A DNA stretch of 64,000 nucleotides from Escherichia phage A7_1. Below, in pieces: positions 2,218-22,588 of the stretch (position 1 is its first letter; each line of letters begins with the position of its first letter). The notes beneath the pieces are model-generated. The model ran no database searches and was not told the origin of the DNA. It saw only the letters and a program-made list of their open reading frames with translations. The DNA lies in the sequence record OP795442; one strand, written 5' to 3'. Position numbers and translations under genes: made by a program.

Positions 2218-3393
2218 TCAAAACGGAATATCGTCGTCAAAATCCATATCATCTACAGACATATTTACATGTCCTTCAATATCAGGGGTAGGTGAATCTT
2301 CTGCTGACGGAGTTAACTGCGGTTCCGGCTCAGGTTTCTTTTCCTCTTGCTTAGGAGTTGAAGCACCGTTACGGATCTTATCTTCCAATTGACAGATGAA
2401 TCGGAAATTCTCTTCAGTCTTAGCAATAAAGGTTTCGATATTGTCACGACCCCAACGGGCAGAAAGAATGCCACACTGGCCTAAACGAGCACCGAAAGAG
2501 TAATCATCCATAGATTTAAACTCTTCACGCAGTTTTGCTTTGATCGAATCCATCGCTGCAAGAACTTGTTCTACGATCACACCCTGATTTGCAATAGTTT
2601 CATCAGGGAACATTGCATCGGTAATAGACAGTGCATTACCTAAACGAATAGGTAGATCATCTTTACCTTTACCTGAACGTGATCCTGTTCCAGTACTTGC
2701 ACCTTTTGGACCGTAAGCTTTAAAGCCTGTAACCGTACCATCATCTGAACGAACACCTGCAATACGACCACCTTCTGTAATCTGACCCGCCTGTTCATCA
2801 GTGAGGTTTACAGTAACTTCTGTGCCGTCTTCCAGCTTAACAACTACCTTATTGCCTTCAATAGATGTGATATCACCATAAATCTTCTTAGCTGCACCAC
2901 CAGACGGCTTTTGCTGCTGTTGGGAACCACTTGATTGCTGCTGTTTCTGACGAGGCTCACGAGCACCGGATGCGTCAGTAATTTTGATACGTGCTTTCTT
3001 ACCTTCTGTAGAAGAACCTTGACTACCATCTTCTTTGGTATAGGTCTTGATAACAACAGGTAAACGAATTTTCATACCCTCTTTAAGATCAGTGTAACCA
3101 CCTTCAGGATTTTTAATCTGGAACTGATTCTCATACTTCAGGTTTTTAACTTCACCCTCACCAAAAGAAATCCATGCTTGATCTTCACCTTCTTTAAGAA
3201 GAACCGCATAGCGGTGGGTATTGTTAATGCTTTTCTGCTGACCAGTATTCTTGTCTTTGAAGGTAGTCACTCGTGGGCTACCATCTTCATTAATACGTTT
3301 GATCATGATACGTTCAATCGTACCTGCTGCAATGTTTACTGTGGTATCGGAAACAGCATCGTATACAGCATTGATAACTTTAACTTCAGACAT
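2218..3393 (-). CDS. SSB-like DNA-binding protein with acidic C-terminal tail
   Basis: 391 aa ending DMDFDDDIPF, the acidic tail typical of SSB proteins; Gln/Gly/Ser-rich linker; the N-terminal domain is not obviously an OB fold to me. Confidence 0.6.
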   Translation of the reverse strand: MSEVKVINAVYDAVSDTTVNIAAGTIERIMIKRINEDGSPRVTTFKDKNTGQQKSINNTHRYAVLLKEGEDQAWISFGEGEVKNLKYENQFQIKNPEGGYTDLKEGMKIRLPVVIKTYTKEDGSQGSSTEGKKARIKITDASGAREPRQKQQQSSGSQQQQKPSGGAAKKIYGDITSIEGNKVVVKLEDGTEVTVNLTDEQAGQITEGGRIAGVRSDDGTVTGFKAYGPKGASTGTGSRSGKGKDDLPIRLGNALSITDAMFPDETIANQGVIVEQVLAAMDSIKAKLREEFKSMDDYSFGARLGQCGILSARWGRDNIETFIAKTEENFRFICQLEDKIRNGASTPKQEEKKPEPEPQLTPSAEDSPTPDIEGHVNMSVDDMDFDDDIPF

Positions 3394-19695: not shown

Positions 19696-19756
19696 TTGTT
19701 TCTCCTTTCTGTTTGGTATGGGAGAAGTATAGGGGAGTTTAGGAGGGGTGTCAATA

Positions 19757-19785
19757 GAAAAACCGCCCGAAGGCGGTTTATTTTG
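19757..19785. terminator. bidirectional terminator
   Basis: aaccgcccgaaggcggtt hairpin flanked by A-run and T-run. Confidence 0.8.
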
Positions 19786-19792
19786 AAAAATA

Positions 19793-20902
19793 TCAGAAAG
19801 GTGCTTCGTCGTCGAAATCTACATCTTCAACTTCCGGTACATCAGGAATGTCACCTGCGGATTCAACGATACTCTGTTGTTCCCACGTAGGTTCCTCTGA
19901 AGGTTGGTCCATTTCTTCCATAACCTTCTTGATCTCTTCCTCTTGCTCACGTAGGAAGTTATCATCCGGCTCAGGAATATCTTCCTCTTTAATATCTGAA
20001 CGAGTGAGATCACTGTTTTGTTCAGACAAAGGTTGAATCTCTGCGGCCTTAGGTTTGAAATCTGGAGAACGATGATCATCTTCTGGATGAGCGGCATACC
20101 ACTCACGAAGAGTTTCATAAGGACTCTCTAGGAAGCCCTCTGGCGGTTCCAGATAATCACCTGTATCAATGTCATAGAACACAGGGAATTTACCAGCACG
20201 ACCGTGTTTACGGTCATCCAGGATAACAAAGTAAGAAGTGTTACGTTGTTTCATCGGAAGCTCTGGATCTTTGTTACGTTCAATACCCCACATATAGTAA
20301 GTGTTTCGCATCATTGCACGGCTACCAGCAAACTGCGCCGACTGGACTTGACCACCAAATTCATGAGGCTTACCAGATTCAGGCTTGTTAAGGTGACAGA
20401 AGCAATAATAAGTAAAGCCAAGCTCTTTTGCCAGTTTGGAGATCTCATCCGAGAATCGTTCCAGTTCCTGGTTAGCTTCAGAAGCACTCATACCTTGCAC
20501 AAGACGAGTGATCGGGTCAATAAAGATATCTTCACAACCTTCTACGATCACTGCGTGACGGATAGCACCTTTCAGTTCATCCCATACTGCACGACCATAG
20601 TTGTTATAATAGATAACACTATCACCAACTTCATCAGTAGCTTTGATCAGTTCTTCTTGCTTAAAGTAGCCACGTTGACCTTCAAATACTTCATTACCCC
20701 AAATGTCACGGAAAGTTCCATCTTCTTGAGGAATCATTACCTTTTCTGCGTTAACAAAGTCTTTATGATAACGCTTACCTGCGATCTTCTTACAAGTGAT
20801 CTCGTTCTCTTCTTCAAACTTAAACACCGCAGCTTTTGACTTCTCAATACCCGTGATGTGTTCAACCATTTGGTTAAGAAGTTCAGACTTGCCCATTTTC
20901 AC
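19793..20902 (-). CDS. replicative helicase domain (T7 gp4-like), 3' exon of split primase-helicase
   Basis: Begins (V/M)KMGKSELL, the second half of a Walker A box; RecA-like core; ends with acidic tail DVDFDDEAPF. Confidence 0.8.
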   Translation of the reverse strand: MKMGKSELLNQMVEHITGIEKSKAAVFKFEEENEITCKKIAGKRYHKDFVNAEKVMIPQEDGTFRDIWGNEVFEGQRGYFKQEELIKATDEVGDSVIYYNNYGRAVWDELKGAIRHAVIVEGCEDIFIDPITRLVQGMSASEANQELERFSDEISKLAKELGFTYYCFCHLNKPESGKPHEFGGQVQSAQFAGSRAMMRNTYYMWGIERNKDPELPMKQRNTSYFVILDDRKHGRAGKFPVFYDIDTGDYLEPPEGFLESPYETLREWYAAHPEDDHRSPDFKPKAAEIQPLSEQNSDLTRSDIKEEDIPEPDDNFLREQEEEIKKVMEEMDQPSEEPTWEQQSIVESAGDIPDVPEVEDVDFDDEAPF

Positions 20903-21643
20903 CGTTATGTTCGACAGGGTTCGCTACTCCCTGCCCGTTCTCTTACGAACTGCTACATGTCCCCATGCAGACCAGACTATATCTTCAACCTGTTTCCAGG
21001 TGCTATGCACTTCGGACCGCTTGGTCCTACTCTACTCGATTCAAGAGTCTAGCTCTTGTCTTTCGATAGTCGTTGCTCCTTCCTCTCAACCGCTTTGTAA
21101 TTTGTCTTACGGTATCTCTGTGTATCCCAAAATGCTCTGCAATTTCTTTTTGTTGAAGCGTGGTATTAATAACCATTTCGTAAACCTGCTTCTCAAAATC
21201 ATCAGCATATCTATTTGGATTTCTTCTACCGTTGGCCCAACCATGATCGACATTTTCTTTCGTGGTTGTCCATTCCAAATTAACATCGTTGTTGTTTTGC
21301 CTGTCGCTATCTTTATGATTAACAACAGGAAGGTTATGAGGGTTATCAACGTAGTGTTCAGCCACCAATTGGTGAATAAATCTACGTGTAACCTTACCAT
21401 CTTTACTTAACGAAACTCTAAGATACCCTGAACTATTGGTATCCGGTTTGAGTTTTTTAAGCTTCCGGTAAACATCTCCCCTTCGGGTAATGATGTAATT
21501 TTCAAAACCTTTTATTCTTTTCATTTCCCCCTCCTTGCAATAAACAAAGAGGTTGAGAGGCTTGGATCAGGATTACGTGTTCTACGCTTCCCCTGAGTTC
21601 ACATAGTATTTAGTCGAGGCATCTCTGCCAAGGCTGGCTAGAC
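20903..21643 (-). mobile_element. intervening sequence in primase-helicase gene, candidate group I intron with HNH homing endonuclease ORF
   Basis: About 740 nt between primase stop and helicase start; contains an independent ORF with its own SD; approximate boundaries. Confidence 0.6.
21027..21524 (-). CDS. HNH-family homing endonuclease (intron-encoded candidate)
   Basis: 165 aa; N-terminal GFENYIITRRGDVY (NUMOD4-like), HNH-type core, basic C-terminal DNA-binding tail; AAGGAGGGGG SD. Confidence 0.8.
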   Translation of the reverse strand: MKRIKGFENYIITRRGDVYRKLKKLKPDTNSSGYLRVSLSKDGKVTRRFIHQLVAEHYVDNPHNLPVVNHKDSDRQNNNDVNLEWTTTKENVDHGWANGRRNPNRYADDFEKQVYEMVINTTLQQKEIAEHFGIHRDTVRQITKRLRGRSNDYRKTRARLLNRVE

Positions 21644-22588
21644 TTAATGTTTACCAGCACCGATGAAGTAACCTTCACCTGGACGACGACCCAAGGTAAG
21701 CTTGGTCATGGTGGGCCAAGGGAACTTCTTGCCGAGTTTAGGGATCTCATGTGCCTTTTCGCGGAACTGTGAATAAGTCGAGAAACCATCCGGCACATAT
21801 TCCTTTGGCTTCATTGCAGCCCAAAACAACTGATCAGAAAGTCCTTTGTTATACATGTCGCAAGGGTCCATATCTTCTGGAATGTCCACGACCTTCATTT
21901 GTGGAATTACAGAGTATACCGCTGCAACTGCATCTTTACCTTTCATGATCCCTTTGGCCTTCTCTGCTTCTGTCGCACGGTCAGCATCGAAAGCTACGAT
22001 AATCTCTTCAAACTTACTCAGAAGCTTATAGTTATTCTTCTGTGATAAGTTTTGCACGGCATTGGATGTACCGTTAGAGATAGATACAACTGTGAAGTTT
22101 GGTTTACGAGTGGAACCATCCTTCGGTTTGTACTTCTCTGTCAATACCTGCCACAAGATTGCAGCATCGTATTCACCTTCAGTGATAAAGATCATACGTT
22201 TGGAAGACTTGTTTGCACCTTCCAGACCAAACATATCACAGGCTACAGATTGGAAACCGATAGTTGTAAAGTGCCCTTTCTGTTGCTTAGGGATCGTAAG
22301 ATCACGCTTTTTAAAACCTACAACCTTACCTTCCAATGTGTACGGAAAATAATGTGCTTCTGGAGTCATACCGTCTTTAGCTGACAACTTGGTACGAATA
22401 CCAAATCGTTTAGCTGTCTTTTCGTCGATACCACGCTCAGGGATACTTTTACACGGGTAAGTCAATACATCTTCAACTGTTTCTTCCACACGAGACACAC
22501 CACCACCATAATTACGTGCTACTGAAGCTTTAGGATTTTTATGTCCGAACTTATAACCGCCAAACAAACTTTCGCCAATAGTGCTCAT
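21644..22588 (-). CDS. DNA primase (TOPRIM) domain, 5' exon of split primase-helicase
   Basis: 314 aa; TOPRIM motifs IFITEGEYDA and VAFDADRA; ends GEGYFIGAGKH-stop, the first half of a Walker A box. Confidence 0.8.
   Translation of the reverse strand: MSTIGESLFGGYKFGHKNPKASVARNYGGGVSRVEETVEDVLTYPCKSIPERGIDEKTAKRFGIRTKLSAKDGMTPEAHYFPYTLEGKVVGFKKRDLTIPKQQKGHFTTIGFQSVACDMFGLEGANKSSKRMIFITEGEYDAAILWQVLTEKYKPKDGSTRKPNFTVVSISNGTSNAVQNLSQKNNYKLLSKFEEIIVAFDADRATEAEKAKGIMKGKDAVAAVYSVIPQMKVVDIPEDMDPCDMYNKGLSDQLFWAAMKPKEYVPDGFSTYSQFREKAHEIPKLGKKFPWPTMTKLTLGRRPGEGYFIGAGKH

Follow-up and report, generated by a model that had tools for sequence, protein, structure and literature searches.

The stretch analyzed here, 64,000 nucleotides (nt) of Escherichia phage A7_1 (record OP795442; hereafter the window, whose positions supply all coordinates), carries on its minus strand a primase open reading frame (ORF) and a helicase ORF separated by an HNH endonuclease gene. 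Very probably, the two outer frames are exons of a single primase-helicase gene of the T7 gp4 kind, the codons of whose Walker A motif are split by a mobile, IA2-like group I intron. A candidate intron of this class had been proposed at 20895-21650 in a sequence-only reading, and the proposal is now supported by a U at position -1 held in a U.G pair of P1, by a terminal G, and by a P3-P9 core with covariation.

The three ORFs lie in series, with the ends and starts described in that reading. The primase half (22588..21644) encodes 314 amino acids, gives weak Toprim matches and has the C-terminal end ...GEGYFIGAGKH*; the HNH ORF follows at 21524..21027, with its own Shine-Dalgarno (SD) sequence, as had been claimed. 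The helicase half (20902..19793; 369 amino acids, DnaB/gp4-type) matches DnaB_C in profile searches and opens with GTG-AAA-ATG-GGC-AAG-TCT (VKMGKS). No SD sequence lies upstream of its GTG at 20902, and this apparent start is an internal Val codon. The stop reported after the primase half is likewise present, as an in-frame UAA (21646..21644) two codons inside the insert; the final 'KH' of the primase ORF comes from translation running on into the intron and is absent from the mature protein.

The insert between the primase and helicase ORFs occupies 21652..20903 on the minus strand and measures 750 nt, so that the location first proposed was right and its ends were off by a few bases. Alignment with intron-less homologues located the insertion site precisely and in frame: phages A73 and LTH01 each carry one uninterrupted gene of 2046 nt (681 amino acids), annotated "DNA primase/helicase", from which the intron is precisely missing and whose DNA runs continuously past window 21654|20903. 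At the level of single bases the junction is ambiguous by 1 nt: the GGT of the window corresponds to GGG in these intron-less phages, so that the boundary can be moved by one base to U|...G|. The boundary returned by BLAST (21654|20903) was rejected, as exon 1 would end in G and the intron in C, against the rules for group I introns; if the T at 21653 is instead taken as the last base before the 5' splice site, both rules are obeyed, with U closing exon 1 and G closing the insert. So delimited, the intron has AAACAUUAAG at its 5' end and ...GAACAUAACG at its 3' end, with the terminal G at 20903, and the predicted ligated-exon junction reads ...GGUGCUGGU|GUGAAAAUGGGC....

Exon 1 (21653..22588, minus strand; codons 1-312) holds the Toprim/primase part up to ...IGAG and is contiguous with exon 2 in A73 and LTH01; exon 2 (19793..20902, minus strand; codons 313-681 and the stop) supplies the DnaB/gp4-type helicase and begins, as RNA, GUG AAA AUG GGC AAG UCU. 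Joined, they give 2046 nt and a protein of 681 amino acids that is the same as that of A73 through residue 643, junction included. The rejoined P-loop reads ...IGAG|VKMGKS..., the break in the Walker A motif coming after a Gly codon and before a Val codon. The contiguity with a T7 gp4-like loop that had been foreseen was borne out, and the sequence guessed for it was slightly off, the real one being GAG-VKMGKS. Against T7 gp4 itself, the joined protein aligns without gaps across the junction (...IGAG|VKMGKSELLNQ... with ...TSG|SGMGKSTFVRQ...; expect value (E) about 1e-20), and it matches the DNA primase/helicase family phrog_239 at 6e-157. Homologues are accordingly not two proteins that end and start at these residues: those of A73, LTH01 and T7 are single chains. 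Near the junction the exons stay in frame, and changes between relatives are synonymous only.

Membership of the insert in the group I family is clearest in phage W70, which carries at the same site a 283-nt, endonuclease-free twin of the window intron. This twin is identical to the window intron over nt 1-95 and has one mismatch over the last ~183 nt (one base differs between the two outside the P6a hairpin). A covariance-model search scored the W70 copy at 70.4 bits (E 1.9e-16) on the Rfam group I intron model RF00028, for which the gathering score is 50 bits.

Helices were assigned by hand on the intron sequence, with support from folding (all coordinates minus strand). P1 pairs the last 6 nt of exon 1, GCUGGU (21658..21653), with an internal guide sequence GCCAGC (21633..21638) read from the sequence, placing the splice-site U in a U.G wobble; the same helix appears in the minimum free energy (MFE) fold. 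The 5' half of the core (21564..21629) comprises P2 (GGCA/UGCC, 21629..21618), the 5' strand of P3 (21606..21600), P4 (21596..21591 with 21572..21567), P5 (21587..21584 with 21578..21575) and the 5' strand of P6 (21566..21564); compensatory changes are seen in five pairs of P3, three of P4, two of P5 and three of P6. P6a (21082..21560) is a 10-bp stem, CCUCUCAACC at 21560..21551 with GGUUGAGAGG at 21091..21082, closing a 459-nt loop. The 3' half (20913..21079) begins with the 3' strand of P6 (21079..21077) and J6/7, continues with P7-5' GACUA (21071..21067), which pairs with P7-3' UAGUC (20979..20975), and then forms P7.1 (21066..21036; variable in length among relatives), P7.2 (21027..21014; four of five pairs with compensatory changes), P3-3' (21009..21003), P8 (21001..20988) followed by J8/7 UGAAGAUA, P9 (20970..20953, within the region aligned by Rfam), P9.1 (20950..20937) and P9.2 (20935..20913). 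This half is supported by the Rfam alignment of the conserved GAAGAUAUAGUC and the P9 region, and by covariation in P7.2, P9.1 and P9.2. The terminal guanosine (omega-G) closes the intron as ...ACAUAACG at 20903, and G is also the last base in all 11 aligned relatives. Since P7.1 and P7.2 lie between P7 and P3', the intron is placed with IA2-like phage introns, a subgroup call based on the presence of these two helices. With the ORF removed, the core folds at z = -4.2 relative to shuffled controls, and its MFE structure recovers P1, P2, P4-P6a, P7.1, P7.2, P8 and P9-P9.2.

Comparative data support this structure. A blastn search with the intron core matches 926 phage records, some of them already annotated Intron_gpI. 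From these relatives, 11 introns were aligned with MAFFT, namely those of the window, W70, UPEC06, Klebsiella phages Roth32 and RCIP0089, Zobellviridae phage KZY1 and Pectobacterium phage CB7 (NrdA), two DNA polymerase introns of Pseudomonas Pakpunavirus phages, and DNA polymerase introns from an Acinetobacter phage and from T-even phages (G2285). Across the 57 pairs of P3-P9.2, the P7 pseudoknot included, 93.6% of cells are paired, compared with 31-41% when the partners are slid by 1-3 columns; both partners have changed in 29 of the 57 pairs, the covariation score of 0.467 compares with at most 0.10, and in 500 shuffles the observed values were never attained. In every member of the alignment the guide complements its own 5' exon, with exon/guide pairs in related introns such as GGCGU/GCGCC, AUGGGU/GCCCAU, GUGCGU/GCGCAC and GGUGU/GCAUC.

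The gene carried by the insert (21027..21524, minus strand) encodes 165 amino acids with an I-HmuI-type HNH domain and a C-terminal helix-turn-helix, and is predicted from these similarities to specify an intron-encoded homing endonuclease of the I-HmuI type. Residues 2-106 match I-HmuI (PDB 1U3E; E 1.4e-14), the protein matches the HNH endonuclease family phrog_59 (4e-43), and several helix-turn-helix profiles match residues 109-148 just under their cut-offs. Its identity is 52% to the endonuclease of the KZY1 P-loop intron and 38% to CB7_202. The ORF is preceded by GCAAGGAGGGGGAAATG, with the SD sequence AAGGAGGGGG at 21536..21527. Most of the gene lies inside the P6a loop, and its last ~22 codons overlap P6a-3', P6-3', J6/7, P7-5' and P7.1, P7.2 starting at the G of the stop codon. 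A local hairpin (CCUCUUUGU/GCAAGGAGG) predicted over the SD sequence is of ordinary stability (z = -1.3), and sequestration of the SD was dropped on that account. A promoter scan found a 9/12 sigma-70-like match at 21631..21603, within the intron and 5' of the endonuclease gene; with 11 sites observed and 6.2 +/- 2.8 expected, such a match is no better than chance and was given no weight. Searches with nhmmer and tblastn found no further copy of the intron or the endonuclease within the window.

Mobility of the element is indicated by its distribution and its flanks. The close relatives of the phage are Vequintavirinae of the recently named genus Septuagintavirus (PMC11370258), and at this locus DNA identity is 97% to A5-4 and 93-98% to UPEC06, W70, A73 and LTH01 (94-97% for A73 and LTH01). 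Among these six phages, the window included, the intron site is found in three states: intron with endonuclease gene (window, A5-4, UPEC06), intron without it (W70), and no intron (A73, LTH01). Compared with the window, A73 has 23 differences within 100 nt on either side of the junction where 5.8 are expected (P = 6e-8), and LTH01 has 17 where 6.3 are expected (P = 3e-4), none of which changes the protein. Of these synonymous differences, 7-8 lie no more than 16 nt from the junction, and they predict that intron-less DNA and the joined exons of the window would differ in sensitivity to the endonuclease. Over the same interval the intron-bearing UPEC06, although 3.6% diverged overall, shows no difference where 6.3 are expected (P = 0.002). 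Flank divergence thus tracks the presence of the intron, which is the pattern expected of co-conversion during homing, and, where exons differ between phages by 1-4%, the ribozyme core is practically unchanged.

The W70 twin has a distinct P6a: its 4-bp hairpin CCUU-GAAA-AAGG, which holds no ORF (W70 sequence 1620-1645), replaces the CCUC...GAGG stem that is extended to 10 bp in the window, with a compensatory C-G to U-A difference and a 6-nt filler. The W70 form is therefore not a clean deletion of the window ORF, and loss of the endonuclease gene in W70 or its gain in the window lineage are both possible. The same primase-helicase gene of W70 also holds a second group I intron of about 847 nt with its own HNH gene (W70 sequence 2413-3259); this intron splits ...AMMR|NTYYMWG... 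between the codons for Arg and Asn, with a P1 of AUGCGU/GCGCAU and an RF00028 score of 25.3 bits, the ORF again interrupting the model. The window is without this second intron, having CGA AAC at 20307/20306 where W70 has CGU|AAU.

The mechanism that we propose from these features would begin with transcription of the whole gene as one pre-mRNA, on which the UAA two codons inside the intron would halt ribosomes translating exon 1. The RNA of the intron would fold into P1 (GCUGGU/GCCAGC), the P3-P9 core with its P3/P7 pseudoknot, and P7.1/P7.2; an external guanosine would then attack after the U at 21653, and the freed 3'-OH of exon 1 would attack after the terminal G at 20903, ligating the exons. 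By analogy with introns of the same family, the A7_1 intron probably does splice in this way, and the spliced mRNA would encode the 681-amino-acid protein with an intact P-loop. The endonuclease would be made from its own ribosome-binding site in the P6a loop and, in mixed infections, may nick or cut alleles that lack the intron, close to the insertion site; repair off the intron-bearing copy would bring in the intron and, on either side, about 100-140 nt of the adjoining exon (homing with co-conversion). More speculatively, unspliced message may yield a stand-alone 314-amino-acid primase, in which case splicing efficiency would set the ratio of primase to primase-helicase. T7 gene 4, which has two products, offers a loose parallel.

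Several observations weigh against this interpretation. The window intron itself scores just 24.9 bits on RF00028 (E 0.0018; the match aligns the conserved ...UGAAGAUAUAGUCU... and the P9 region), under the gathering score, and in Rfam searches of the whole 64 kb and around the locus, at both thresholds, this sub-threshold hit was the only one and no group II match appeared. The low score arises because the endonuclease ORF, as a 459-nt loop, interrupts P6a, and the evidence for the group I assignment consequently comes from the W70 copy, which is nearly identical, and from the window intron once its ORF loop has been taken out by hand. Within the 11-intron alignment, P7 (GACUA/UAGUC) is invariant and so uninformative for covariation, and P8 is only 47% paired; the latter forms a hairpin by eye in every sequence, and its poor score reflects mis-registration of a variable-length loop by MAFFT. 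No convincing P10 was found, in that the P1 loop shows no clear complementarity to the first bases of exon 2. As to the endonuclease, its Pfam HNH_3 score of 21.4 bits falls just under the cut-off of 24.8, the position of the I-HmuI metal ligand Asp74 is occupied by Asn, and the overlap of the ORF with P6-P7.1 means that translation could compete with folding. Finally, one HNH-containing CB7 intron, CB7_245, did not splice under the conditions tested (PMC7344957).

This last case, together with the NrdA of Aeromonas phage Aeh1, split by mobE, provides precedent for split polypeptides (PMC7344957), and thus for the alternative that the A7_1 intron is real and no longer splices, the 314-amino-acid primase and the 369-amino-acid helicase assembling non-covalently. 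The exon-2 ORF does open with GTG, with an ATG two codons later, either of which could serve as a start. We nevertheless consider this improbable. With the split located within the Walker A loop (GAG | VKMGKS), a helicase begun at the GTG or the ATG would lack the first half of the P-loop and the linker, and it would lack an SD sequence before 20902 as well; furthermore, the ribozyme core is intact, conserved and obedient to the U/G splice rules, and the exons are perfectly in frame with only synonymous changes near their junction.

Very improbable is a free-standing HNH gene, without a ribozyme, inserted between primase and helicase genes that are naturally separate. Free-standing HNH genes are abundant in Vequintavirinae, with at least 16 in CB7 (PMC7344957), and GenBank lists three separate coding sequences at this locus. 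Yet the gene is fused in the relatives, with zero intergenic space at the junction; the 252 nt of the insert outside the ORF form, with the 3' end of the ORF, the covariation-supported group I core; and W70 keeps a 283-nt RNA element with no endonuclease gene.

Inteins often target the P-loops of helicases and terminases. Removal of the element as an intein, or as a group II intron, can nonetheless be practically dismissed: a putative CB7 helicase carries an intein (PMC7344957), but here the primase frame stops two codons into the insert and the endonuclease has its own frame and its own SD sequence, making a continuous precursor protein impossible, and profile searches detected no intein or reverse-transcriptase domains while Rfam returned only RF00028.

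Read as a split primase-helicase gene, the locus calls for a corrected annotation. The GenBank records of A5-4, UPEC06, W70, Roth32, KZY1 and HP1 enter the exons as separate "hypothetical", "helicase" or "primase/helicase" genes, and in KZY1 the endonuclease is itself labelled 'DNA primase/helicase'; the separately listed exon genes would be one primase-helicase gene. The paper that describes the genus Septuagintavirus makes no mention of introns, reads the pieces as "different DNA helicases", for which A73 and W70 are given as the only sources, and takes the extra helicases as phage-specific and as a sign of different replication strategies (PMC11370258); on the present interpretation, the "different helicases" are a misreading of these fragments. 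The same paper notes an 'additional DNA polymerase only in A5-4' (PMC11370258), and a report on phage KEC4 describes a terminase large subunit split by an HNH gene (PMC12942863). It is likely that both represent further unrecognised HNH-bearing introns in Septuagintavirus; no element of either kind was scored in the 64-kb window.

Neighboring features were also noted. Directly after the primase-helicase stop codon lies a strong terminator-like hairpin of the intrinsic type (AAACCGCCTTCGGGCGGTTT followed by a T run; 19760..19779, minus strand), and just past the same stop there is an 11/12 sigma-70-like promoter match (TTGACA-17-TATACT; 19726..19754, minus strand), which together suggest a transcription-unit boundary. 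The acidic C-terminal tail of the primase-helicase (window 19793..19860, ~40 codons) is a hotspot of divergence, where 16-17 nucleotide differences from A73, LTH01 and UPEC06 lie, out of ~73-91; all amino-acid differences from these three phages fall in tail residues 644-678. In T7 gp4, the acidic tail contacts DNA polymerase.

Group I introns with homing endonuclease genes have been known in phages since T4 td, and here neither the mechanism nor the intron class nor the endonuclease family departs from the textbook; what had not been recognised before is their presence in a primase-helicase gene or in Septuagintavirus. No report of a group I intron in a phage primase-helicase gene was found in the searchable literature, and the primase-helicase gene and its Walker A motif can thus be added to the list of intron targets. 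The close relatives also form a natural allele series (no intron, intron alone, intron with endonuclease gene), to which W70 adds a second intron site; as this series is found in nearly identical phages growing on E. coli K-12, it could provide a convenient system for studying homing and the gain and loss of endonuclease genes.

Compared to known systems, the closest likeness in position is found in introns that occupy the Walker A region of primase/helicase genes in Pseudoalteromonas phage HP1, KZY1 (Zobellviridae) and Klebsiella phages Roth32 and RCIP0089. These belong to the same intron family as that of the window (70-80% core identity) and share its motif and kind of gene, although their hosts are unrelated phages of ~45-50 kb and the insertion points lie 2-12 nt apart: GAG|VKMGKS in the window, GSGV(GU|A)KMGKS in HP1, GTGV(GU|A)GKT in Roth32 and KMG|KS in KZY1. 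All four points fall within about 13 nt, and the guide of each intron fits its own exon. In GenBank these introns, that of RCIP0089 included, are either unannotated or wrongly entered with their exons as separate genes. A tentative and, in our view, doubtful extension is that the P-loop DNA of gp4-type primase-helicase genes is a recurrent landing site for one IA2-like intron family, with at least four insertion points in four unrelated lineages (Septuagintavirus, two Zobellviridae and the Klebsiella Roth32-like phages); such recurrence could reflect retargeting by reverse splicing or drift of endonuclease specificity and not simple vertical descent. HP1 also seems to hold a second intron of this family deeper in the helicase part (about 2800-3030 of the HP1 sequence), which ends just before ...FCHQMWGLEGN, a few codons from the site of the second W70 intron.

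For intron family and phage subfamily together, the nearest parallel is the NrdA intron of CB7/phiTE (Certrevirus, Vequintavirinae) with its HNH gene CB7_202, which is 84% identical to the window intron over an 88-nt 3' core and has the P3-P9.2 architecture in common with it. Its endonuclease gene, like that of the window, sits in a P6a loop closed by a long stem (the ORF loop of KZY1 is also closed by a P6a stem). In contrast, the CB7 host gene encodes the ribonucleotide reductase alpha subunit, the guide pairing is CAGGGU/GUCUUG, and the ORF stops before P6a-3', whereas the window ORF continues through P6, P7 and P7.1. For this subfamily, splicing of such an intron has already been demonstrated, that of CB7 NrdA having been confirmed by RT-PCR and Sanger sequencing (PMC7344957). 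The T-even DNA polymerase intron G2285, annotated Intron_gpI, aligns to the window core at 73-77% identity. More broadly, the subgroup IA2 introns of T4 td, nrdB and nrdD (sunY) have cores of the IA type that include P7.1/P7.2, a stop in frame a short way into the intron, and an endonuclease ORF in a loop that extends from a peripheral helix, and they are inserted in conserved motifs of DNA-metabolism genes, as in the window; their host genes differ, however, and td and sunY encode GIY-YIG enzymes (I-TevI and I-TevII) instead of HNH enzymes. The protein family of the window endonuclease is that of the I-HmuI and I-HmuII introns in the DNA polymerase genes of Bacillus phages SPO1/SP82, which differ in phage host (Gram-positive), in target (DNA polymerase) and in the peripheral loop that carries the ORF. 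I-HmuI and I-HmuII are HNH enzymes that act by nicking and that drive homing along with the co-conversion of markers at the flanks, and the skewed flank divergence at the A7_1 locus matches this I-HmuI-type behavior.

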